Source of the DNA: Clostridia bacterium
Lineage (GTDB): Bacteria; Bacillota; Clostridia; Christensenellales; CAG-138
Direction: 5' to 3'
NCBI GenBank assembly: GCA_017525875.1
Contig: JAFXSG010000004.1
Location: 76,738 to 140,737, forward strand
Length of the DNA stretch: 64,000 nucleotides
The notes under the pieces: generated by a model
What the model saw: only the letters and a program-made list of their open reading frames with translations
Databases searched by the model: none
What the model was told of the DNA's origin: nothing
Program-made: the position numbers and the translations under genes
Shown: positions 34,121 through 50,167 of the stretch, piece by piece
How the letters are laid out: the number at the start of each line of letters is the position of its first letter
How positions within the stretch are numbered: the stretch's first letter is position 1

Positions 34121-37100
34121 ATGAAAAGATTCTTTGCAACACTGCTTGCGGCTTTGATGGTCATCTCACTGGTATCCATCCCCGTTGCAGCAGAGGGCGA
34201 AGTCGTTTTCACCGCTGATACCGTTACCGGCGTTCTGCCCGGCGACGACGTATCGGTCCCCGTCTATATCGAGGGTGAAAACTTTGAGGCACATACTCTC
34301 AACATGTACGTGGAGTATGATACCGCTGCCCTTACACTGAACTCCATTACCAAGGGCGATATCGTTTCCGATGCAACTATGTGCATCCCGGATGTTTCGT
34401 CCGAACCCGGCAAAGCCAAGTTCGGTTTCCTCTACGTTACGGACGGTTTCACCCAGAGCGGTACCCTGTTCACCATGAACTTCACCGTCAATGCCGAAGC
34501 GACCGAGGACGTCCCGCTTCACGTTGTCGTGGTTGAGTTCGTGAACCTTCCCGTTAACGGTACGGCTACTCCGATCCCCTTCGTCACCGAGGACGGTCTT
34601 GTCGATCTGGACGTTGAGCCGGTCGAGACCGAAGCTCCCGCGACCGAAGAGCCCGTCGAGCATACTCTGGACGAAGCTCTGAACGTCTCCGGCGGCGAGC
34701 TCCACTTCGTGTCCGAAGGCACCTATCCCTGGATCGTTGTTGAGGAAGGCGACCGTCTGTTCGCGCAGAGCGGCAACGGCGGCGTCAGCAGCTCCTCCTC
34801 CACCCTGACCTTGACCGTCGTGTGCGAAGAGGGCGACACCCTTACCTTCGAGTACAAGGCATTCGGCGAAGGCACCAACTCCTATTGGGATCACTGCGAC
34901 TTCTACGTCGACAACACCCGCGTCCTCTACTACGGCGCTCTCCAGAATGACTGGACCGAGTTCACCACCGATCCTCTCACCGCAGGCGAGCACACCTTCA
35001 CCTGGTCCTACACCAAGGACAGCTCCGTCAACCCGAACGGCGACTATTTCGCAGTCGATAACGTTGAGCTGACCGAGGGCGAGCCGGTTGTCACCGAAGA
35101 ACCCGTCGTCACCGAAGAACCCGTCGTCACCGAAGAGCCCACCACTCCTCCCGAGACCGAAGCTCCCGTTTCCGGTCTGATCGCAGGTTACTACTTCGAG
35201 ACCGAGGAAGAAGCCAACGAGTGGACCTTCGAAGATCAGGACGGCGACGGCTACACCTGGCGCTGGCTCTGCTACAACGTGAACTACAGCTATGAGTCCG
35301 CTTACGAAGGCTACGGCCTCCTCTCCTCCGACTCCTACAACAGTGCATGGGGCGGCGCGCTGAATCCCGATAACTGGGCGATCAGCCCCGAAGTCACGCT
35401 TCCTGCTGACACCGCTTCCGTGACCATGTATCTCAGCGCTCAGGATGCAAGCTGGTCCGACGAGATCTTCCAGGTCTACGCACGCAGCACCACCCGCGGC
35501 GAGTGGGTCGCTCTTGCTGACGAGGACTTCACCGCGACCGGTGAGTACCTCCAGTATTCGTTCGATCTTGCGGACTTCCTCGACGACACCGTCCAGATCG
35601 CTGTCCGCCACTACAACTGCACCGACATGTTCCGCCTCAACCTTGACCAGGTCGAGTTCTGGGGCGAGGGCGGCGAGCCTGTTGTGACCGAAGAACCCGT
35701 TGTCACCGAAGAGCCCACCACTCCTCCCGAGACCGAAGCTCCCGTTTCCGGCCTGATCGCAGGTTACTACTTCGAGACCGAGGAAGAAGTCAACGAATGG
35801 ACCTTCACCGGCACCAATGAAACCAACTGGGTATGGTCCGTCAACAACCCCGGCGGTTATGACTACACCGAGTTCGCACATGAAGGCGAAAGATTCATTA
35901 TGTCCTACTCTTTCGTCGACTATGTTGGCGCCTACCAGGCCAACAACTGGGCGGTCTCCCCCGCAGTCACCCTGCCCAACGGCACTGCGTCCGTCACCTT
36001 CTACGCAAGCAATGCCAACTCGTCCTACCCCGAGGCATTCTCCCTCTACGTCGGCACCAGCCCCGACACCGCCTCTATGGATCTGATCGAGGCGAACATC
36101 GCTCCCTCCACCGGCTATGAAGATCCCTGGACTTACTACGAGTTCGATCTTTCCGACTATGCCGGCCAGACCATCTATCTTGCGTTCTACGATGAGTGCT
36201 ACGATATGTATGAGATCTGGATCGACCAGGTCGAGTTCTGGGGCGAGGGCGGCGAGCCTGTTGTGACCGAAGAACCCGTTGTCACCGAAGAACCCATCGT
36301 GACGGAAGTTCCCGGTGAAGAAGAGTTCATCGCAGGTTACTACTTCGAGACTCGCGACGAGGTCAACGAGTGGACCTTTGTTGACGCCAACAACGACGGC
36401 TTCAACTGGATGTGGAACATTGATTACACCTACGAAGACCTCTCCGGCGTTGCCTACGAAGGCGAGGGCTTCATCACCTCCGAGTCCTACTCCAACGATC
36501 CCGACTACAGCGTACAGCCCAAGTATGGCGCGATCGATGCCGACAACTACGCTGTATCCCCCGCTGTGACCCTCCCGGACGGCACCGCGCGCATGACCTT
36601 CTATGCCACCACCTTCGGCAACTACGGTTATGAGCATCTCGCCGTTTACGCAGGCCTCACTCCCGATCCCGCAGACATGACCGTCGTCATGCCGGAGACC
36701 GAGATCTTCGCTACCACCACCGATTCTGTCAACTATGCGCAGTATGAGGTAGACCTCTCCGCGTTCGCCGGTGAGACCGTATACGTTGCGATCCGCCACT
36801 TCAACAGCTACGACTACTTCCTCGTCGGCGTTGACCAGGTCGAGTTCTGGGGCACCGGCGCTCAGCCTGTCGAGACTGAGACTCCCGTTGAGACCCCGAC
36901 TCCCATCGAAGGCGTAGCATTCACCGTTGAGTCCCCCGAGCAGGTACAGCGCGGCGAGACCTTCGACGTCACCGTTTCCCTTGAAGGCGAGTATGAAGCA
37001 CATACCCTCAACTTCATGCTCAACTACAATGCAGACGCATTCGAGCTCGTCAGCACCGCTGCCGGCAACGTCCTTGATCAGGTTAACGAGATCGGCGGCT

Positions 37101-38593
37101 TCCAGCTGATCGACGACAGCACCATTGTCGGCTCCATCCGCCTCGGCGTCATCATGCCCAATGAGGCGTTCACCGCGAACGGCCTGCTGTTCACCGCAAC
37201 CTTCCGCGCGAAGGACGATGCGGCACCCGGCTTCTATGACTTCGTTCCCGAAGTGACCGAGTTCCGCAACTTCCCCGTTGACGGTCAGCCCACCGACATC
37301 GAGTACACCGCTGTTCTCGACACCACCGAGATCGTCGCTCCCATCGAGACCGAAACTCCCATCGAGGGCGTGACCTTCATGGTCATGTCTCCCGACCAGG
37401 TAATGCAGGGCGAAGAGTTCACCGTTGAAGTAGCTGTTCACGGCGACTATGAAGCACACGGCCTGAACTACGCTCTCGCGTATGACGACAGCGTATTCGA
37501 GATCGTCGGCGTCGATACCGACACCGCGGTCCTCAACCAGGTCACCGACCTCGGCGGCGCATACGTCGTCGACTACGAGACCATCCCCGGTTCTCTCCGC
37601 CTCGGCTACATGATGCCCACTGACGGCGTTACCGCTCAGGGCCAGATGCTCGAGATCACCTTCCGCGCTAAGGAAGACGCGGCTCCCGGCCTGTATGACT
37701 TCACTCAGACCGTTGAGTCCTTCCGTTACTTCCCGCTCGACGCTGAGGAAGGCGTTGAGATCCCCTACACCTGCGAGGATGACACCACCGAGATCGTTGA
37801 GAACAACGAGGCAGTCTTCACCGTTGAGTCCCCCGATGAGGTCCAGCGCGGTGAGGAGTTCCAGGTGACCGTTTCCATCAGCGGCAACTACCCCGAAGCA
37901 CACGGCCTGACCTTCGCTCTCAACTATGACGACAGCGTATTCGAGTTCGTCTCCGCAGAGAACGGCGACAAGCTCAACGAGTGCGTTGCGCTCGGCGGCG
38001 TTGTAGCTATCGACGGCGAGACCATCGTCGGCTCCGTCCGTCTCGGCGTTGCGATGCCCACCGACGGCTTCACCGGCGACGGCGTCCTGTTCACCGCGAC
38101 CTTCCGCGCGAAGGACGATGCGGCTGCCGGCCTCTATGAGTTCGCTCCCGAAGTCATGGCGTTCCGCACCTTCCCGGTAGACGCTGAGGAAGGCGAGGAC
38201 ATCCCGTACACCGAGATCGAGGACTACACCGAGATCGTTGACGAGATCGTCACCCCCGAGCCCACCGACGAGCCCACCGTTCCTCCGACCGAGGAGCCCA
38301 CCGTTCCTCCGACCGATGAGCCCACCGTTCCTCCGACCGAGGAGCCCACCGTTCCTCCGACCGAGGAGCCCACCGTTCCTCCGACCGAGGAGCCCACTGA
38401 GGAGCCCACCGAGGAGCCCACTGAGGAGCCCACCGAGGAGCCCACTGAGGAGCCCACCGAGGAGCCCACTGAGGAGCCCACTGAGGAGCCCATCCCGACC
38501 CCGCCGACCGGCACCATCGCACTTGTTGGCGTTGGCATCGCCGCGATCGTCGCAGGCGCAGGCATCGTCCTCTTCAGGAAGAAGGAAGACTGA
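34121..38593 (+). CDS. Cell-surface scaffoldin-like protein: 4 cohesin domains, 3 cleaved-adhesin/choice-of-anchor-J-like modules, 1 unassigned module, P/T/E linker, C-terminal anchor
   Basis: Signal peptide aa 1-24. Cohesins about aa 27-165, 929-1072, 1080-1226 and 1229-1373 (V.F.V.S...V..GE.F.V.V....EAH.L.....YD...FE). Adhesin-like modules aa 352-515, 543-708 and 735-911 (AGYYFE..W.F.D.DGDG..W; NPDNWAISPEVTLP). TPPTG plus a hydrophobic helix plus RKKED at the C-terminus. Confidence 0.8.
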   Translation: MKRFFATLLAALMVISLVSIPVAAEGEVVFTADTVTGVLPGDDVSVPVYIEGENFEAHTLNMYVEYDTAALTLNSITKGDIVSDATMCIPDVSSEPGKAKFGFLYVTDGFTQSGTLFTMNFTVNAEATEDVPLHVVVVEFVNLPVNGTATPIPFVTEDGLVDLDVEPVETEAPATEEPVEHTLDEALNVSGGELHFVSEGTYPWIVVEEGDRLFAQSGNGGVSSSSSTLTLTVVCEEGDTLTFEYKAFGEGTNSYWDHCDFYVDNTRVLYYGALQNDWTEFTTDPLTAGEHTFTWSYTKDSSVNPNGDYFAVDNVELTEGEPVVTEEPVVTEEPVVTEEPTTPPETEAPVSGLIAGYYFETEEEANEWTFEDQDGDGYTWRWLCYNVNYSYESAYEGYGLLSSDSYNSAWGGALNPDNWAISPEVTLPADTASVTMYLSAQDASWSDEIFQVYARSTTRGEWVALADEDFTATGEYLQYSFDLADFLDDTVQIAVRHYNCTDMFRLNLDQVEFWGEGGEPVVTEEPVVTEEPTTPPETEAPVSGLIAGYYFETEEEVNEWTFTGTNETNWVWSVNNPGGYDYTEFAHEGERFIMSYSFVDYVGAYQANNWAVSPAVTLPNGTASVTFYASNANSSYPEAFSLYVGTSPDTASMDLIEANIAPSTGYEDPWTYYEFDLSDYAGQTIYLAFYDECYDMYEIWIDQVEFWGEGGEPVVTEEPVVTEEPIVTEVPGEEEFIAGYYFETRDEVNEWTFVDANNDGFNWMWNIDYTYEDLSGVAYEGEGFITSESYSNDPDYSVQPKYGAIDADNYAVSPAVTLPDGTARMTFYATTFGNYGYEHLAVYAGLTPDPADMTVVMPETEIFATTTDSVNYAQYEVDLSAFAGETVYVAIRHFNSYDYFLVGVDQVEFWGTGAQPVETETPVETPTPIEGVAFTVESPEQVQRGETFDVTVSLEGEYEAHTLNFMLNYNADAFELVSTAAGNVLDQVNEIGGFQLIDDSTIVGSIRLGVIMPNEAFTANGLLFTATFRAKDDAAPGFYDFVPEVTEFRNFPVDGQPTDIEYTAVLDTTEIVAPIETETPIEGVTFMVMSPDQVMQGEEFTVEVAVHGDYEAHGLNYALAYDDSVFEIVGVDTDTAVLNQVTDLGGAYVVDYETIPGSLRLGYMMPTDGVTAQGQMLEITFRAKEDAAPGLYDFTQTVESFRYFPLDAEEGVEIPYTCEDDTTEIVENNEAVFTVESPDEVQRGEEFQVTVSISGNYPEAHGLTFALNYDDSVFEFVSAENGDKLNECVALGGVVAIDGETIVGSVRLGVAMPTDGFTGDGVLFTATFRAKDDAAAGLYEFAPEVMAFRTFPVDAEEGEDIPYTEIEDYTEIVDEIVTPEPTDEPTVPPTEEPTVPPTDEPTVPPTEEPTVPPTEEPTVPPTEEPTEEPTEEPTEEPTEEPTEEPTEEPTEEPTEEPIPTPPTGTIALVGVGIAAIVAGAGIVLFRKKED
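35129..35230 (+). repeat. Intragenic 102-bp direct repeat, copy A
   Basis: Differs at 3 positions from 35705-35806 by manual alignment (linker plus the start of the adhesin-like module). Confidence 0.85.
35705..35806 (+). repeat. Intragenic 102-bp direct repeat, copy B
   Basis: Near-identical to 35129-35230. A more diverged third copy starts near 36250. Confidence 0.85.
38258..38492 (+). repeat. Tandem repeats in the linker: 24-bp unit x5, then 12-bp unit about x8-9
   Basis: gagcccaccgttcctccgaccgag units (PTEEPTVP) followed by gagcccac[ct]gag units (EEPT). Confidence 0.9.
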
Positions 38594-38841: not shown

Positions 38842-39924
38842 ATGAAAAAGATCTTTGCATTCCTCCTCGCAGCAGCGCTGCTCCTCTGCACCGGCCTCGT
38901 CGTTGCCGAAACCATCTCCGGCACGGCGCCCGTCACCAAGGATCCGGTGAAGCTCGAGGGCTACTCCATCGGCGACAGGACCGGCGACACGGTAGGTAAA
39001 TGGATCGCCTTTACGGACGATAACCCCTCCGAGGTCGAGACGCTGACCGCCAACCTCACCACCTATGCCGCGGCGTGCGTCGGAGACTATCTCTACGGCT
39101 ATTGCTACGGCTACAACGCCGCCGGCGAGCTGATCACCGATTTCTACTATGTGGATATGAGGACCCACGTCACTATGTATCCCGGCGCCAATTCCGGCAG
39201 CGAATTTGTCTTCGGCATGGCCTATAACAGGCTCGATGAGACCATGTACGCGCTCGTCGACGAGGATCATCCCTACGTTGCGACGGTCGACCTCGAGACC
39301 GCCGAGCTGACCCGCGTCGTCGATATCGACCTCGGCAGTTATCTCGGCCTGATGACCTTTGCGATCGACGGTGAAGGCAACTTCCTCGCGCTCGCCATGT
39401 CCGCCCTCAGCTCCCGCCTGCTGAAGATCGATATGCAGACCGGAGCCCTGACCGAGGTCGGCAACACCGGCATCCCCTGCTACTACGCGCAGTCCATGAC
39501 CTATGATTACGATACCGACAGGATCTACTGGGCACAGTGCGAGAGCCCCACTTCAAGCGGACTGTATTGGCTCGATCCGCGCACCGCGGAGGCGACCTCC
39601 TGCGGCCAGATCGGTCCGGACGGTATTGAAGTAACGGCGCTGTACGTTGCGCCGGAGCTTGGGGATGAGCCCGATCCCTCCCCGGAACCCACCGAGACCC
39701 CTATCGAGACCGAGACTCCGATCGAATACATGCTGGGCGACGTCGACGCGGACGGCGAAGTCACCATCTCTGACGCGATCCTTGCGATGCGCAGCTCCAT
39801 CGGCACTATCGAGCTCGATGAAGCCCAGATCCTCGCTGGCGACGTCAACCTTGACGGTGCCGTCGACGTTACGGACGCGCTGCTCATCATGCGCTACGCC
39901 ATGGACCTGATCCAGAGCTTCTGA
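38842..39924 (+). CDS. Secreted dockerin-containing protein with a beta-propeller-like N-terminal domain
   Basis: Signal peptide. C-terminal type-I-like dockerin with two Ca-loop segments, GDVDADGEVTISDAILAMR and GDVNLDGAVDVTDALLIMR (nt about 39730-39915). P/E/T linker. N-terminal domain unassigned. Confidence 0.8.
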   Translation: MKKIFAFLLAAALLLCTGLVVAETISGTAPVTKDPVKLEGYSIGDRTGDTVGKWIAFTDDNPSEVETLTANLTTYAAACVGDYLYGYCYGYNAAGELITDFYYVDMRTHVTMYPGANSGSEFVFGMAYNRLDETMYALVDEDHPYVATVDLETAELTRVVDIDLGSYLGLMTFAIDGEGNFLALAMSALSSRLLKIDMQTGALTEVGNTGIPCYYAQSMTYDYDTDRIYWAQCESPTSSGLYWLDPRTAEATSCGQIGPDGIEVTALYVAPELGDEPDPSPEPTETPIETETPIEYMLGDVDADGEVTISDAILAMRSSIGTIELDEAQILAGDVNLDGAVDVTDALLIMRYAMDLIQSF

Positions 39925-43629: not shown

Positions 43630-46566
43630 TCACTGATCGCCGTCCGTCGGCATATCGCCGCCGAAGAGCTGATTGAAATCGGCCGCGGTGATCAGCACGT
43701 TGCGCGGCTTCGCGCCGTCGCCCTTGGTGATATAGCCCCTCTGCTCCATGCAGTCGATCAGGTTGCCCGCACGGGAGTAGCCGATGCGCAGGCGGCGCTG
43801 CAGCATGGAGATGGAGGCCTGCTTGTTTTCGATAACGAGGCGCAGCGCGTCGGGAAGCATATCGTCGTCCTCCTTGTTCGCGGCCGGACTTCCCGCCTGG
43901 CCGCCGGTGGAGATCTCCGTGATATCCATTTTGAAAACAGGCTTCTGCGAGGTGGTGGTCGCAAAAAACTCCGCGACCGCTTCGACCTCCTCATCGCTCA
44001 CGAAAGCGCCCTGCGCGCGGGTGGGCTTGCTCGCGCCGTTCGGGTGGAACAGCATATCGCCTCTGCCGAGCAGCTTTTCGGCGCCGGTCGTGTCCAGAAT
44101 GACGCGGGAGTCCGTGCCGTTCGAGACCGCGAACGCGATGCGGGAGGGAATGTTCGCCTTGATAAGGCCGGTGATGACGTCCACCGACGGGCGCTGTGTG
44201 GCGACGATCAGGTGGATGCCGCAGGCACGGCCGAGCTGCGCGATGCGGCAGATGGAGTCTTCAACGTCCTTCGCGGCAACGAGCATGAGGTCGGCAAGCT
44301 CGTCGATGATGATCATCAGGCGGGGCCAGCGCTCGTTCTCGTCCTTCTGAACGGCGTTAAAGCGGTCGATATCCCTTGCGTGGAACTCAGCCATCTTTTT
44401 ATATCGGGCGTCCATCTCGTTGACGGCCCAGCGCAGCGCGCTCGCCGCCTTCTTGGGCTCCGTCACGACGGGGCAGAACAGATGGGGCAGCGTTTGGAAG
44501 ATCGAAAGCTCGACCACCTTCGGGTCGATCAGGATCATGCGGACGTCCTTCGGGGAGGACTTATAGACGGCGCTCAGAATGATGCCGTTGATGCAGACGG
44601 ATTTACCGGAACCGGTCTGGCCCGCAACGAGCATGTGGGGCATTTTGCTGAGGTCTCCGAGCACGACCTTGCCGGCGATATCCTTGCCGAGGGCGAAGGT
44701 CAGCGGGGACCTCGCGTTCTGGAACTCGCTCGATTCAAACAGCTCGCGCAGGTAAACCGTAATGGTGCTGGAATTCGGGATCTCGATGCCGATCGCGGAT
44801 TTGCCGGGGATCGGCGCCTCGATGCGCACCCTCGGCGCGGCGAGCGCAAGAGCGATATCGTTGCTGAGCGAGGTGATCTTGCTCACGCGGATGCCCTGTG
44901 CGGGCTGGAGCTCGAAGCGCGTGATGACGGGGCCGACGCTGATATTGACGATCTTCGCCGAGATGTTGAAGCTCCTGAGCGATTCGATGAGCAGCCGCGC
45001 CTTCTCCTCCGGCGGTTCGGACGCGACGGACGTGGTCGGGTCGGGCAGCTTCAGCAGGTCGAGAGGCGGACGCTGGTATTCGATGACGACCGGATTCTCG
45101 GTGATGGCGTCGCCGTCTCCGGTCTCCGTGCTTTCGTTCTCGGGCTTCTTGGGCTTCTCTTTCCCGGCCTCTTCGCCTGTGCCGTCGTCATAAGTGACGG
45201 GGATGGTCTCGGTCATAACGGGCTCCGCAGTCTCGTCCCCTGCGGGGATGGGATCGGCGTGCTCGGGATCGTCATAGCGGGAGATCACAACGCCGTCGAG
45301 GATATCATTATCGGGCACGTCAGCGGGGATGGCGTTTGCAGGATCGACGGAGGGGGAGTCGAGCAGCTCTCCGTCCGCGGGCTTCCTGATGGGGATGCGG
45401 TGGCGGGGCTTCGCGGGAACGGATACCCAGTCGCCGTAGTTGCCGCTTTCAACGTTGAAGCTGTCCTTGAGCTCGCCGCTGTTTTTATCGCGCCTGCGTG
45501 CGGAGGATCTTCCGGTCTCGAGCGGGCCGGAAACGGGGAGAAAGTCGAGCTCGCCCTCGTGCTTGTTCTTACTGCCGCCAAACCTTACGCGGTGGCGGCC
45601 GGCGCTGCGGTCTGCGGAGGGTTCGGCTTCGGTCCTGCCTGCGGGGCGCTTCGTGCCGGCAGACCTGCCGTAGTCGTAGTCGGTGTCGCCGGCGGTCAGC
45701 GGGTCTCCGGAGTGGGGGATGAATTCCTCGTCCTCCTGCTCGTCGGGAACAGGCTCGTTCCTGCGCGTTTTCTTGCCGTCGTCAGTAAGCTGCTCGTTAT
45801 AGGGCTTGCGTTTTTCGCGGCGCGCGGCGGCGTCGTTCACGTATGCGGTGTGCAGCTCGCGGGCGTAGTTGCCGATCGAAAAATGGGTCAGCAGCAGCGC
45901 GGCGATGATGATGACGCCGATCAGGGCGACGATCGAACCGACCTTGCCGAGCAACAGAACAAAGAGATAGGCCACAAGTCCGCCGAAGAAGCCGCCGCCG
46001 CGGTGCGCCTTGCCGTAAGTGATCGCGTCGGAGACCGCATCGCCGAATTTAGCGCCCACAAGAGCGCTGCCGCGGGTGATGACGTGGATAAGGCCGAGCA
46101 CGGCAAACAGTATCACAATAATGCTGATCACGGTGCCCGGGCGCAGCTCGCCGTCAGGAACGGCGATGAGCATGACGCCGAGCCCGATGAGGATAACGGG
46201 GACGGCATAGGTCATGATGCCGAACAGGCCGAACAGCAGCGGCGCCGCGGCGGAAAGCAAACCGCTCGAGCCGAAATAGCAGAATATGCCGAGCAAAATG
46301 CCGAGGATCACGAGCACCACGCCGAAGATCTCGCGCCCGGTGTCGATCCTGTCGCGCGGGGCGGCGGAGCGGGAACGGCCGCGGCTTGAGGACGGGGACC
46401 GCCCGCCGGAGGAAGCGGATCTGCCGCCGGAGGACGCGGACCTGCTGCCGTAAGCGCGCGCGGTCGAAACGGCCGTTTTCTTTTTGCCGCCGCCGGAGCT
46501 TCCTACCGATCGGGAGCCGCCTCTGCCGGCCGGTTTTTTATTTGAAGTTGTTTTCGTGTTTGCCAT
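43630..46566 (-). CDS. ftsK: DNA translocase FtsK/SpoIIIE
   Basis: Start ATG 46566 (GAAAGGTG upstream). N-terminal TM helices, long disordered linker, Walker A VAGQTGSGKSV, C-terminal gamma winged helix (ASISMLQRRLRIGYSRAGNLID). Confidence 0.92.
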   Translation of the reverse strand: MANTKTTSNKKPAGRGGSRSVGSSGGGKKKTAVSTARAYGSRSASSGGRSASSGGRSPSSSRGRSRSAAPRDRIDTGREIFGVVLVILGILLGIFCYFGSSGLLSAAAPLLFGLFGIMTYAVPVILIGLGVMLIAVPDGELRPGTVISIIVILFAVLGLIHVITRGSALVGAKFGDAVSDAITYGKAHRGGGFFGGLVAYLFVLLLGKVGSIVALIGVIIIAALLLTHFSIGNYARELHTAYVNDAAARREKRKPYNEQLTDDGKKTRRNEPVPDEQEDEEFIPHSGDPLTAGDTDYDYGRSAGTKRPAGRTEAEPSADRSAGRHRVRFGGSKNKHEGELDFLPVSGPLETGRSSARRRDKNSGELKDSFNVESGNYGDWVSVPAKPRHRIPIRKPADGELLDSPSVDPANAIPADVPDNDILDGVVISRYDDPEHADPIPAGDETAEPVMTETIPVTYDDGTGEEAGKEKPKKPENESTETGDGDAITENPVVIEYQRPPLDLLKLPDPTTSVASEPPEEKARLLIESLRSFNISAKIVNISVGPVITRFELQPAQGIRVSKITSLSNDIALALAAPRVRIEAPIPGKSAIGIEIPNSSTITVYLRELFESSEFQNARSPLTFALGKDIAGKVVLGDLSKMPHMLVAGQTGSGKSVCINGIILSAVYKSSPKDVRMILIDPKVVELSIFQTLPHLFCPVVTEPKKAASALRWAVNEMDARYKKMAEFHARDIDRFNAVQKDENERWPRLMIIIDELADLMLVAAKDVEDSICRIAQLGRACGIHLIVATQRPSVDVITGLIKANIPSRIAFAVSNGTDSRVILDTTGAEKLLGRGDMLFHPNGASKPTRAQGAFVSDEEVEAVAEFFATTTSQKPVFKMDITEISTGGQAGSPAANKEDDDMLPDALRLVIENKQASISMLQRRLRIGYSRAGNLIDCMEQRGYITKGDGAKPRNVLITAADFNQLFGGDMPTDGDQ

Positions 46567-46731
46567 TGTTTCACACCTTTCAGGGAATAACGAATTATGA
46601 AACATGCACGGCCAAGCCTTATGGAGCGCGGCAAGAGCGGTGCAAACTTACATATACTACCATTTTGTATTATACAGCAAACTGCAGAAAATTGGAAGTG
46701 CTTATAGATCGCGGAAAATTATCGGGGTACG

Positions 46732-46757
46732 AAAAAGCGCACCGGGCGGCGGTGCGC
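46732..46757 (-). terminator. Terminator after the zinc-ribbon membrane protein gene
   Basis: Minus-strand GCGCACCG-ccgcc-CGGTGCGC, then TTTTT. Confidence 0.7.
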
Positions 46758-46777
46758 TCTCGGAAGATCGGGACGGA

Positions 46778-47245
46778 TCAGAACAAATGCTCGATCTGGT
46801 ACTGGAGCCGTTCCAAAAAGCCGGTGCTCCTGCCGAGGGCAAGCATTACCAGGAGGAAGGTGATGAACACGGCCGCGGCGATCAGCAGCGCGCAGAAGAA
46901 GCTGCGGGCATAGTTGCGGCGGTTGATATTGGTCTTTTTGAAGCTGAAGACGATGAGGAAGACAAAGCCGACGATCGGCACGGCGAAGAGCAGGTTGAGC
47001 CCGAAATACGCCCAGGGGCTGAGCGGCTTGTACTGGTCGGGAAGATCGGCTGCCGCCACGGGCGCGGTCCGCGAGGGAGCGGTGTAGGGCTGAGGCACGG
47101 GCTGGGGCACGGGCTGAGGAGCGGGCTGAGGAGCGGGCTGGCTGACAGGCGCAGCTTTTGCAGGATCTTCAACGGCGCAGCCGCAGTTCGGGCAGACCAG
47201 GTAATGGTCTTCGAGTTTGAAGCCGCATTTGGTGCAGAATTTCAT
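46778..47245 (-). CDS. Zinc-ribbon membrane protein with a P-Q-rich spacer
   Basis: MKFCTKCGFKL..CPNCG zinc ribbon, PAPQPAPQPVPQPVPQP spacer, two TM helices. Confidence 0.7.
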   Translation of the reverse strand: MKFCTKCGFKLEDHYLVCPNCGCAVEDPAKAAPVSQPAPQPAPQPVPQPVPQPYTAPSRTAPVAAADLPDQYKPLSPWAYFGLNLLFAVPIVGFVFLIVFSFKKTNINRRNYARSFFCALLIAAAVFITFLLVMLALGRSTGFLERLQYQIEHLF

Positions 47246-47478
47246 GGTTTTGATCCTTTCCTGATATTATTTGCCGGTCCGGCGCCTGCAAGATCGACGC
47301 GCTGCCGGCGGCAGCGGCAAATTCATGAAGTCCGAAATGATATTCTCAGGCTTTCCTCCGTGTTTGCAGGGCTGCCGATAACAAATCAAGTATATTATAC
47401 GATAAGCGGGGCGCACTGTCAACAACCCGCGCCGAAAACGCAGGAGACAGGACACTTTTTCAAATGCGGCCCGAACTA

Positions 47479-47508
47479 TTGACGGGGGGAGTTTTTCCAT
47501 GGTAAGAT
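47479..47508 (+). promoter_or_regulatory. Promoter candidate for the S8 protease gene
   Basis: TTGACG (47479-47484), 18-nt spacer, TAAGAT (47503-47508). Confidence 0.45.
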
Positions 47509-47557
47509 TACTCCCGTAATACTCCGCTCCGCCGGACGAACAACAGGAGGACTTCCC

Positions 47558-50167
47558 ATGAAACTCAGAAAGTTTGCGGCACTTATCGTCGTGCTCGCAT
47601 TCTGCATCGTAATGATCCCCGCCGTCACTGCCGAAAAGGCGGAGACGGCCGAAAGCAGCGAAGCGCGCATCGCGGAACTGCTCGACTTTGCTTCCCGCCT
47701 GAAGAAAATGGAGAAGGCGTATGCCCCGAAGATCGACAACAAAGCGGAGGCCATGAACGATCCCTACGCAAATGCGAGAATCATCGTCAAGTATGCGGGC
47801 GAGCTCGATTATTCCGGCTCCTGCGCGCACGTGAGCGGCTATAACGACCGGCACGTCATCCAGTACCGCACTCCCGAAGAGGCGAAGGCCGCAGCGGAGA
47901 AGTACGCGAAGCTCGACGGCGTTGAGTATGCCGCGCCGGATCAGATCATGGAGATCGCCCAGACCCCGCACAACAATACCTTCCTCTCCTGGGGCTTCGG
48001 CGCGAACTACGTGGACGCGTTCAACTATAACGAATGGCTGCTCGAGCAGGTCGATCTTTCCGCTCTGCCCGAGATCGTCGTCGGCGTCTGCGATACCGGC
48101 GTGGACAGCGACCATGAGTTCCTCGTCGGCCGTCTTGCTTCCGGCGGCTACGATTTCGTGAACAACGACAATGACCCCGAGGACGAGCACTACCACGGCA
48201 CGCATGTTTCCGGCACCGTCATCGACGGCACGCTGCCGAACGTGAAGGTCATGGGCATCCGCGTGCTCGATGCGGACGGCTACGGCGACACGATCGACAT
48301 CGTGAACGGCATGGAATACGCCAACCTGCACGGCTGCAAGGTCTGCAACCTGAGCCTGCGCGGCCCGAGGGACGACAGCAGCTATCAGATGTATTCGGAG
48401 GTCATCAACACGGGCTCCGATAACGGCACCGTGTACTGCATCGCTTCCGGCAACGACGGCGGCAGCTCCGAGGAATGGGTCCCCGGCAGCATCGCGCGTT
48501 CCTTCACCGTTGCCGCGCATGACGACTACAACTCAATGGCTTATTTCTCCAACGTCGGCCCGAGCGTGGATATCACGGCGCCCGGCGTGAATATCCGCAG
48601 CGCGGCCAAGGGCGGCGGCTACCGCAACCTGGACGGCACCAGCATGGCCACCCCCCACGTCGCGGCGGCGTGCGCTATGCTTCTCAGTTTCTCGCCCGAG
48701 CTTGCTCCGGATGACGTCGTCACAACGATCAAGGGCGCAGCGGTGGACGTCGGCCTCACGGGCGGCGGCGCAGGCGTTCTGAACGTTACCGACCTGCTCA
48801 AATACGACAATATCCTGAACGGCGAGGGGAGCAGGATCCACTTCACCTCCGGCGGGAACTATCCCTGGGCGACCGACGAAACGAGCGCGTTCAGCACCAA
48901 CAGCGGCGTGAACAGCTCCGTTTCCACGATCACGAGCCGCGTTTTCCTCGGCGCGTATCAGGAGATTAGCTTTGAATACAAGGTCTCCTCCGAGCAGGAT
49001 CACGACGCGCTCAGCTTCAAGGCGAACGGCCAGGAGCTGATGACTGCGAGCGGCGAGACCGGCTGGCAGACATACACCGGCGTGATCCCGATGAGCGGCA
49101 CCGTGCAGCTCGCTTGGGAGTACTCGAAGAACGCTTCGGGCAGCGCGGGGCAGGATAAAGCATGGATCCGCAACGTCATTATGACCAAAACGCTCAGCTC
49201 CGTCGCGAACGACGACGGCTCCGAACTGCTTTTCGCGAGCGAGGGCAGCTATCCCTGGGTCATCGACGGCGACGCGATCAAGAGCGGCAATGCGGGCGTG
49301 AACAATTCCTCTTCGGAGGTCTCGACCACCATGCACATGCCGGAAGGGCTTTCCTTCGCGTTCCAGTACAAGGCTGAGTGCGGCACGGGCGATAAGTTCG
49401 AGTTCCTCGTCAACGGAACGACCGAGCTGACCGTCTCTGCTTCCGCCGGGTGGACCTCGTTTGAATACCTCGCTCCGTCCACCGGCGATTACACCTTCAC
49501 CTTCCGCTACGTCAAGAACGGCTCGGGCAGCACCGGCGCGGACGCCGCGTGGATCAGGAAAGCAAAGACGATCGCGAGCATCAGCTACGTGCTGAACGTT
49601 GAAAACGGCAGGCTCTCGTTCGACAACAACGGGCTCTATCCCTGGAACGTGGAGAACAGCTACGCGGTGAGCGGCAACCAGAACGTCGCTTCGAGCAGCT
49701 CGTCCATCTGCCTCATCGTGAATATGCACACGGGCGACGCGCTCACTTTCCGCTATAAGGTCAGCAGCGAGAACAATTACGACTGGTATAACTTCTACGC
49801 GAACGGCCAGCAGATGTTCCATTACTCGGGCAACGTAAACTGGAGCACCTATACCTATACGGCGCAGCAAGACGGCAGCTATACCTTCGAATGGCGCTAC
49901 GAAAAGGACTACAGCGTCAACGGCGGCAGCGACTGCGCGTATCTTGACGACGTGGAGCTGATCACCTCCGAGCCTTCCTTCATTCCGGGAGACTGCGACG
50001 GCGACGGTTCGGTCACCGTTTCGGACGCGCTGCTTGCGATGCGCTACGCAATGGGTCTGATCGGCGCGGACGAGCTCGATATCGACGCTGCGAATATTGA
50101 CGGCAGCGGCACGGTGGATATCTCCGACGCGCTGACCATCCTGCGTATGGCGATGGGCACGGTGTGA
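47558..50167 (+). CDS. Secreted S8 (subtilisin-family) serine protease with three unassigned ~120-aa modules and a C-terminal dockerin
   Basis: Signal peptide. I9-like propeptide. Catalytic D (VGVCDTGVD), H (HGTHVSGT) and S (GTSMATPHVAA). Modules at nt 48821-49186, 49214-49567 and 49589-49963. Dockerin GDCDGDGSVTVSDALLAMR / ANIDGSGTVDISDALTILR (nt 49982-50161). Confidence 0.88.
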   Translation: MKLRKFAALIVVLAFCIVMIPAVTAEKAETAESSEARIAELLDFASRLKKMEKAYAPKIDNKAEAMNDPYANARIIVKYAGELDYSGSCAHVSGYNDRHVIQYRTPEEAKAAAEKYAKLDGVEYAAPDQIMEIAQTPHNNTFLSWGFGANYVDAFNYNEWLLEQVDLSALPEIVVGVCDTGVDSDHEFLVGRLASGGYDFVNNDNDPEDEHYHGTHVSGTVIDGTLPNVKVMGIRVLDADGYGDTIDIVNGMEYANLHGCKVCNLSLRGPRDDSSYQMYSEVINTGSDNGTVYCIASGNDGGSSEEWVPGSIARSFTVAAHDDYNSMAYFSNVGPSVDITAPGVNIRSAAKGGGYRNLDGTSMATPHVAAACAMLLSFSPELAPDDVVTTIKGAAVDVGLTGGGAGVLNVTDLLKYDNILNGEGSRIHFTSGGNYPWATDETSAFSTNSGVNSSVSTITSRVFLGAYQEISFEYKVSSEQDHDALSFKANGQELMTASGETGWQTYTGVIPMSGTVQLAWEYSKNASGSAGQDKAWIRNVIMTKTLSSVANDDGSELLFASEGSYPWVIDGDAIKSGNAGVNNSSSEVSTTMHMPEGLSFAFQYKAECGTGDKFEFLVNGTTELTVSASAGWTSFEYLAPSTGDYTFTFRYVKNGSGSTGADAAWIRKAKTIASISYVLNVENGRLSFDNNGLYPWNVENSYAVSGNQNVASSSSSICLIVNMHTGDALTFRYKVSSENNYDWYNFYANGQQMFHYSGNVNWSTYTYTAQQDGSYTFEWRYEKDYSVNGGSDCAYLDDVELITSEPSFIPGDCDGDGSVTVSDALLAMRYAMGLIGADELDIDAANIDGSGTVDISDALTILRMAMGTV

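Follow-up and report, generated by a model that had tools for sequence, protein, structure and literature searches.

Dockerin proteins of Ruminococcus flavefaciens FD-1 carry 16 peptidase modules and 155 domains of unknown function (PMC2930009). A jelly-roll on a secreted protease has been described for VesC (Protein Data Bank [PDB] entry 6BQM), whose third domain (residues 381 to 511) is a concave beta-sandwich nearest to the MAM domains of meprin and RPTP-mu and to carbohydrate-binding modules (CBMs), and it was suggested to bind carbohydrate or glycosylated substrates (PMC7771236). Dockerin-bearing peptidases are already known, as are jelly-rolls positioned after secreted proteases (VesC, Tk-SP, meprin, and LAST-MAM); what is missing is family curation. 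Here, we analyzed a 64,000-nucleotide stretch of DNA from a Clostridia bacterium of the CAG-138 lineage (contig JAFXSG010000004.1, positions 76,738 to 140,737), referred to below as the window. It contains a gene encoding a dockerin-tagged S8 serine protease (positions 47558 to 50167, plus strand, 869 residues) and a gene encoding a scaffoldin (34121 to 38593, plus strand, 1490 residues). The protease carries three tandem copies and the scaffoldin one copy of a module of about 120 residues. We assign a probability of roughly one half to the view that this module serves as an accessory for targeting or ligand binding in a cohesin-dockerin complex on the cell surface, with a putative ligand that would probably be a glycan or glycoprotein.

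Analysis of the protease open reading frame revealed a signal peptide (residues 1 to 25, MKLRKFAALIVVLAFCIVMIPAVTA; 47558 to 47632), read from the sequence with a putative cleavage site. It is followed by an N-terminal propeptide region with a probable extent of 47633 to 48070, in which residues 100 to 128 show a weak match to Fervidolysin_NPro (E = 0.047); an orthologue (P0127) passes the cutoff of this model (22 bits versus 21). The catalytic domain (residues 172 to 398; 48071 to 48751) matches Pfam Peptidase_S8 (PF00082) with an E value of 7e-41 and 140.8 bits (cutoff, 21.8). The triad is intact, with D179 in CDTG, H213 in HGTHV, and S362 in GTSMA, and the oxyanion residue N299 lies in SGNDG. 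The above-threshold Pfam match and the Asp-His-Ser order with the oxyanion Asn place the enzyme in family S8. The C-terminal dockerin (49982 to 50161) matches Pfam Dockerin_1 (PF00404) at residues 810 to 861 with 25.2 bits (cutoff, 22.9). It consists of two EF-hand-like Ca-binding repeats, DCDGDGSVTVSD and NIDGSGTVDISD, which begin at residues 811 and 846 and are thus about 35 residues apart, as in a type I dockerin. The description of the gene in a first-pass annotation, as an S8 protease with a C-terminal dockerin, was therefore borne out by the Pfam matches, the catalytic residues, and the two Ca-loop repeats. The identical protease protein is carried by 15 metagenome contigs, and the record names of some of these (XIEF21-1_...METAG) may point to a gastrointestinal catalogue from ruminants.

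Between the catalytic domain and the dockerin, the three module copies occupy residues 422 to 543 (48821 to 49186; hidden Markov model [HMM] iE = 2e-42), 553 to 670 (49214 to 49567; iE = 1e-37), and 678 to 802 (49589 to 49963; iE = 2e-47), all on the plus strand. Copies 2 and 3 are preceded by linkers of 9 and 7 residues, respectively. The fourth copy comprises residues 182 to 318 of the scaffoldin (34664 to 35074, plus strand). The four segments could be aligned from end to end with 21 invariant columns. Pairwise BLASTP among them revealed 31 to 39% identity and was significant for all pairs, with E values from 6.5e-07 (copy 1 versus the scaffoldin copy) to 2e-26 (copy 1 versus copy 3). In a noncircular test, the window was translated into 829 six-frame pieces, all of which were searched with an HMM derived exclusively from the three protease copies. 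This model recovered the scaffoldin copy over its full length (E = 2.4e-25, 82.8 bits), and the runner-up piece had an E value of 0.53; there are thus exactly four module copies in the window. The HMM bounds (48824 to 49183, 49214 to 49567, 49598 to 49960, and 34688 to 35071) lie within a few codons of the coordinates proposed in the first-pass annotation, which had described three tandem modules in the protease and the same module once in the scaffoldin; both descriptions hold. The signature given there (YPW ... F.YK ... W ... Y.K..S...D.A.[IL]) agrees with the consensus of 799 domain instances, in which the most conserved positions are W, S-G, F, S-S-E, D, W, W-x-Y-x-K-D, G-x-D, and W-x-D. 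That the similarity of the four copies reflects chance or low complexity rather than a genuine common domain has a negligible probability; it is refuted by the BLASTP E values, the noncircular HMM search, the high-confidence fold, and thousands of homologues.

The first-pass annotation had not been able to place the module in a named family. With regard to curated families, this remains correct. Scans against Pfam-A and NCBIfam at threshold revealed no family for the four copies, 26 close homologues, 10 multicopy proteins, or 45 diverse members (apart from the GOLD matches of a few orthologues, see below), and subthreshold matches of the module sequences were limited to GOLD, Big_3_5, PKD_5, and similar models. 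The module is not an orphan, however; its family comprises 16,352 clusters and has a solved relative, VesC. This family was counted in an exhaustive HMMER search with an 18-member profile against 1.84 billion cluster representatives (50% identity clusters), which returned 16,352 proteins at an E value of 1e-3 or lower and 1,439 at 1e-30 or lower. Many of these proteins are giant, with up to 29 to 30 matched stretches each. The best 150 have a median length of about 1,700 residues and contain 5 to 6 module copies with a median intercopy gap of 28 residues. Partner domains and tags in the family include dockerins, type IX secretion system (T9SS) sorting tails, Listeria-Bacteroides repeats, and Big_7. 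The matching clusters are named only "S8 family serine peptidase" or "hypothetical protein," and when the 45-member profile was used in a word-indexed search for homologues, the yield was five short, unnamed fragments. No description of the module was found in the literature on bacterial GOLD-like or dockerin-associated modules and on Christensenellales cohesin-dockerin systems.

Individual named families were compared with the module one at a time. Copy 3 of the window reaches 18.8 to 20.6 bits with GOLD/EMP24_GP25L (PF01105), below the cutoff of 25.9; no other subthreshold match recurs. Two protease orthologues pass this gathering score (P0132, 34.9 bits; P0145, 26.6 bits), so automatic pipelines may label some bacterial proteases with "GOLD domain." The thresholds of the ELAPOR1-like galactose-binding domain models PF23031 (GBD_ELAPOR1) and PF23032 (GBD_ELAPOR1-like_3rd), set at 27 bits, were reached neither by the four copies nor by the 45 diverse members, for which the local scan was empty even at E values up to 10; many protease orthologues carry a precomputed "faint" match to PF23031, below threshold. 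No Pfam CBM model passes its threshold (CBM4, CBM6, CBM35, CBM61, and others), so that membership in a CAZy CBM family is not indicated, and the closest case is the CBM35 of Xyn30D (E = 0.0096 with the 45-member profile). A Pfam match to MAM (PF00629) and the conserved cysteine pattern of that domain are both absent from the family. Neither the protease nor the module copies match PPC (PF04151) or the P domain (PF01483). The module therefore did not turn out to be a common, well-described CBM or PPC-type domain. Its interpretation as a diverged Cleaved_Adhesin domain was rejected, since hhalign against the three scaffoldin Cleaved_Adhesin domains gave a probability of 0.3% and choice_anch_J gave no match.

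A structural model of copy 3 was generated with AlphaFold2 from a 26-sequence alignment. It has a predicted local distance difference test (pLDDT) score of 92.5 and a predicted template modeling (pTM) score of 0.87, and it shows nine strands arranged as a jelly-roll. A Foldseek search of the PDB ranked VesC 6BQM first (E = 2.4e-5; template modeling score [TMq], 0.71; root mean square deviation [rmsd], 2.1 Å; 109 columns; 22% identity). Further matches were ELAPOR1 (TMq, 0.65 to 0.66), the MAM domains of LAST-MAM astacin, neuropilin-1, and meprin beta (0.54 to 0.62), GOLD domains (0.44 to 0.51, with the p24 GOLD domain at 0.44 to 0.47), and CBM4, CBM35, and CBM61 (0.36 to 0.50). At the sequence level, searches of the PDB with 4-member and 18-member profiles revealed nothing significant. 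Independent support came from the 45-member diverse profile, which matched VesC residues 380 to 483 over the whole domain (profile positions 12 to 126; E = 0.0015) and reached both ELAPOR1 sandwich domains (E = 0.0018), the segments corresponding to Pfam PF23032 and PF23031. Fold and profile agree in grouping the module with the C-terminal beta-sandwich of VesC; taken by itself, the sequence match is borderline. The VesC domain has no Pfam match of its own. We read the module as related to ELAPOR1-like galactose-binding domains but outside PF23031 and PF23032 as now defined. According to the model, it is a nine-strand jelly-roll of the galactose-binding-domain-like/MAM/CBM-like fold class. Judged from this predicted fold, the common ligand-binding domain suspected in the first-pass annotation is plausible as far as a ligand-binding role is concerned.

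A second AlphaFold2 model covered residues 130 to 545 of the protease, that is, the S8 domain and copy 1 (pLDDT, 91.5; pTM, 0.88). Subtilisins superpose on this model with an rmsd of 2.1 to 3 Å (Foldseek). The best PDB matches are Tk-SP chains, which align through both domains (417 to 437 columns; E = 1e-27 to 1e-25) with an rmsd of 13 Å; the order of the domains is thus shared, but the interdomain geometry differs.

Orthologues of the protease with 46 to 66% identity were found in GTDB representatives, including "Clostridium sp. CAG:138," several Clostridia/Bacillota metagenome-assembled genomes (MAGs), and one Christensenellaceae MAG. The arrangement of S8 domain, three modules, and dockerin is kept in four full-length orthologues (49 to 66% identity); the Christensenellaceae locus holds only a C-terminal fragment with one module. 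In one of these MAGs, from goat caecum (Clostridia; L007, 3774 to 12601), three paralogues with S8 domain, three modules, and dockerin stand in tandem, head to tail, which suggests that the docked protease has expanded within this particular lineage. In a neighbor-joining tree of 60 modules, copies 1, 2, and 3 each group with the copy at the same position in other species. Nearest tree neighbors of the protease copies are 54 to 61% identical, and copies within one protein are 31 to 37% identical. Each protease copy is 48 to 61% identical to its positional orthologues in at least four species, with copy 1 reaching 61%. This same-position clustering indicates that the triplication of the module is old and that each position has been separately maintained. 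The scaffoldin copy falls into a separate clade with P0004 (60% identity) and P0005 to P0008, compared with 31 to 39% identity to the protease copies. Recent copying of the module between scaffoldin and protease was rejected on the basis of this tree. P0005 to P0008 are small proteins that consist of a signal peptide, the module, and a dockerin only. These module-only dockerin proteins and the isolated position of the module in the scaffoldin speak for an autonomous module.

S8 homologues with 44 to 52% identical catalytic domains carry 0, 2, 3, or 5 modules (the homologues with varied accessory domains are P0287 to P0303, P0297 to P0300, P0261, and P0079). Those without modules are proteins of about 480 residues in which the dockerin follows straight after the catalytic domain, at about residue 420, and some homologues have Cleaved_Adhesin in the module slot. 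These varied architectures show the module to be an exchangeable accessory and not a folding partner. Cleaved_Adhesin and the module are also the two accessory domain types of the window scaffoldin, and both are seen in the S8 clade. A metagenome scan with the scaffoldin N terminus revealed 31 loci, many from human gut, and the cohesin-module pair is kept at 44 to 59% identity in 20 or more related loci. In the related scaffoldins, cohesins and Cleaved_Adhesin domains are combined with one or two modules, and the order differs from one to another. Among the loci from rumen and human-gut metagenomes (L014 to L038), L014 reads Coh-MOD-CA-MOD-Coh-Coh-Coh (Coh, cohesin; MOD, module; CA, Cleaved_Adhesin), whereas L016, L019, and L025 read Coh-MOD-...-CA-CA-Coh-MOD-...-Coh. 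L017 and L024 have two tandem scaffoldin genes, and in human-gut scaffoldins about 1.8 kb between MOD and CA is not matched by the query domains used. The module is a recurrent accessory part of the cohesin-dockerin proteins of this lineage, both in scaffoldins, near cohesins and Cleaved_Adhesin domains, and in dockerin proteins.

We propose that in this Clostridia bacterium of the rumen or gut, a relative of Clostridium sp. CAG:138, the protease would be exported, lose its propeptide, and dock through its dockerin to any one of the four cohesins on the scaffoldin, itself anchored in the membrane or wall. The diverged modules of the protease, three in number, would form a targeting or ligand-recognition arm with multivalent avidity. 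The scaffoldin module would serve the same role beside three Cleaved_Adhesin domains. Both the complex and the protease would be tethered by the modules to a substrate or surface, and the modules would also space the catalytic domain from the scaffold. A binding role is supported by the fold class, which is dominated by binding modules, by the precedent of VesC on a secreted protease, by the existence of module-only dockerin proteins, and by the interchange of the module with an adhesin domain (Cleaved_Adhesin). Several observations weigh against such a role. No ligand is known for any family member, VesC included, and the module sequence matches no CAZy CBM or lectin family. The most conserved positions of the module may all belong to the core or to a metal site and not to a binding site. 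Arrays of 10 to 29 copies with short linkers (median gap, 28 residues) also resemble structural stalks. Moreover, the pTM of 0.88 suggests that copy 1 packs on the catalytic domain, which a stabilizing role would fit at least as well.

Such a role is the core of a possible but clearly less probable explanation, in which the module is a structural, Ca2+-stabilized jelly-roll without an external ligand that would stiffen the protein, shield it from proteolysis, and, as a spacer or stalk, keep the catalytic domain at a distance from the scaffoldin. A fixed interface of module 1 with the catalytic domain, as suggested by the two-domain pTM, the short linkers between the protease copies (7 to 9 residues), and family proteins with up to 29 copies are in line with this explanation. 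The near-invariant acidic and polar positions (E/D/K-D-x-S/G-x-D/D) are typical of a metal site, and the conserved E/D/K-D-x-S/D positions form a putative Ca2+ site. The Tk-SP chains that best match the two-domain model, through both domains, contain a jelly-roll that binds two Ca2+ ions and is required for hyperstability (PMC3599501). However, at an rmsd of 13 Å, the geometry of the two proteins is unlike. Proteins made of signal peptide, module, and dockerin would be purposeless if the module were a mere spacer, and the scaffoldin module, placed between flexible linkers, can stiffen nothing. The module is also not needed for folding, because close S8 homologues have the dockerin right after the catalytic domain, and related proteases have an adhesin domain in the module slot. 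Targeting and structural roles are not mutually exclusive.

Copy 1 directly follows the catalytic domain, and the pTM of the two-domain model is high; both would also fit an obligate partner for folding or activity, like the P domain of kexin and furin, with copies 2 and 3 as later duplications; the P domain of proprotein convertases is also a jelly-roll. This is very unlikely, as no Pfam P_proprotein match exists in the protease and neither kexin nor furin is among the 50 best matches that Foldseek gave for the two-domain model. It is rejected by the homologues (44 to 52% identity) that lack modules and have their dockerin at about residue 420. Somewhat less improbable, but still unlikely, is a protein-protein interaction domain that makes homotypic contacts in the manner of MAM domains and of the ELAPOR1 sandwich, between protease and scaffoldin or between complexes, as a second layer on the cohesin-dockerin assembly. 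Here, both partners of the complex carry the module, as do related scaffoldins and dockerin proteins. Its fold neighbors include two MAM domains, those of meprin beta and neuropilin-1, as well as ELAPOR1, which assembles via head-to-head homophilic contacts (PMC12337314). The ELAPOR1 contact, though, uses N-terminal histidines and copper (PMC12337314), which are not conserved in the module family. The scaffoldin and protease copies belong to different subfamilies, and many family members occur outside cohesin-dockerin systems, with T9SS tails or Listeria-Bacteroides repeats. A more far-reaching version of the targeting role is doubtful in our estimation. In this version, the module would be the defining recognition element of a noncellulolytic, protease-bearing complex in gut Christensenellales-like bacteria; each copy would recognize its own glycoprotein epitope, of host or dietary origin, or the copies would bind each other. 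The complex would be a surface machine for glycoprotein proteolysis, and the family would be a new lectin- or adhesin-like class whose ligand is defined.

The scaffoldin was identified by Pfam Cohesin (four stretches), Pfam Cleaved_Adhesin (three stretches), and NCBIfam choice_anch_J. Its parts follow in the order cohesin, module, three Cleaved_Adhesin/choice-of-anchor J domains, three cohesins, a PT-rich linker, and a C-terminal hydrophobic anchor. The module is an isolated bead with long flexible acidic Pro/Thr/Glu linkers on both sides. The C terminus (38410 to 38593) consists of a long (EEPT)n/PT linker, IPTPPTGT, a hydrophobic helix, and RKKED, and NCBIfam LPXTG_anchor scores 15.8 bits there versus a cutoff of 15.9. 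It may be a sortase signal with a noncanonical PPTG motif or simply a membrane anchor. Directly after the scaffoldin, a second dockerin protein of 360 residues is encoded (38842 to 39924, plus strand). It has a signal peptide, two dockerin repeats (Pfam Dockerin_1, E = 8e-9), and weak DUF6923/DUF4394 (beta-propeller-like) matches, and its orthologue keeps its position beside recA in L012. This protein is probably another cargo of the same scaffoldin. In the window, the putative cohesin-dockerin complex would comprise four scaffoldin cohesin stretches and two dockerin proteins within 12 kb. No glycoside hydrolase was seen among the docked proteins of the window, and the scaffoldin has no CBM3-type cellulose anchor.

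Between the scaffoldin and the protease genes, the dockerin protein gene is followed by minus-strand genes for RecA, CinA, a CDP-alcohol phosphatidyltransferase, a MiaB-like radical-SAM enzyme, FtsK, and a small zinc-ribbon membrane protein. The last protein (46778 to 47245, minus strand, 155 residues) contains an N-terminal zinc ribbon (CxxC...CxxC), a linker of PQPA/PQPV repeats, and C-terminal transmembrane segments; located between ftsK and the protease gene, it is called as a gene on metagenome contigs and has no Pfam match. Downstream of the protease lie genes for a membrane protein, L9, and DnaB. A scaffoldin-protease operon was rejected because the intervening genes are housekeeping genes. 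The adjacency of the protease and ftsK (43630 to 50167 in the window) is kept in every relative examined (L005, L006, L008, L009, L010, and L012), although orientation and the remaining neighbors vary. This adjacency is conserved synteny of a core region and not an operon with the scaffoldin. In L010, a gene encoding both cohesin and dockerin lies beyond recA. The first-pass annotation had taken the shared module as support for a single scaffold-protease system. As a specific link, the sharing is weak evidence, because scaffoldin and protease copies fall into different subfamilies, the protease copies clustering with their positional orthologues, and the genes do not form an operon; what stands is that the module recurs in scaffoldins and dockerin proteins of the lineage. 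The functional link between scaffold and protease would be the predicted cohesin-dockerin pairing rather than the shared module.

These results do not overturn current understanding. The finding is sound but fairly ordinary, as the module can be classified structurally and its function is inferred only. It does reveal an annotation gap, namely, a family of more than 16,000 clusters (50% identity) that is common in giant surface proteins and has no recognizing Pfam or NCBIfam model. A model seeded on the module sequences, with VesC 6BQM as a reference, would label thousands of "hypothetical" regions and avoid sporadic GOLD mislabels. The locus combines an adhesin-type scaffold with a subtilisin cargo that appears active from its sequence, and relatives of Clostridium sp. 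CAG:138 from rumen and human gut have kept it. The locus adds to the evidence for uses of cohesin-dockerin pairs beyond cellulose degradation. If the module were a lectin, its triple array would offer an easy way to find the natural substrate of the protease.

Comparison with the described systems revealed partial likeness in each case. Like R. flavefaciens FD-1, the system described here has peptidases and modules of unknown function joined to dockerins. It differs from cellulosome types in its scaffoldin with Cleaved_Adhesin/choice-of-anchor J domains and in its CAG:138-like host, which is not known to be cellulolytic. The jelly-rolls of MAM domains and of CBM4, CBM6, CBM35, and CBM61 resemble the module as concave beta-sandwiches often found on extracellular proteases (meprin and LAST-MAM astacin); the module has no sequence membership in these groups, the TMq values are 0.36 to 0.62, and carbohydrate-binding residues are not transferable. 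ELAPOR1 is similar in fold and gives a profile match but is a eukaryotic membrane protein, the established function of which is copper-dependent homophilic tethering (PMC12337314). In Tk-SP, as in the protease studied here, an S8 catalytic domain is followed by a jelly-roll; that of Tk-SP is accessory and binds Ca2+. Tk-SP has a single jelly-roll and no dockerin, originates from an archaeal hyperthermophile, and uses the domain in an established role in stability, not targeting. VesC shares the module core F-x-Y-K-x-S-S-x3-D-x-L-x-x-Y-V in residues 381 to 511 of 6BQM, but it lacks the K-D-x-S...D motif of the module family, and the relation by sequence is borderline. The enzyme has a trypsin fold (S1), comes from the Gram-negative bacterium Vibrio cholerae, and carries one copy of the sandwich after an immunoglobulin-like domain as well as a GlyGly-CTERM anchor. 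Like the modules of the window protease, the VesC sandwich is a C-terminal addition to a secreted serine protease; it has been proposed to target glycosylated substrates (PMC7771236).

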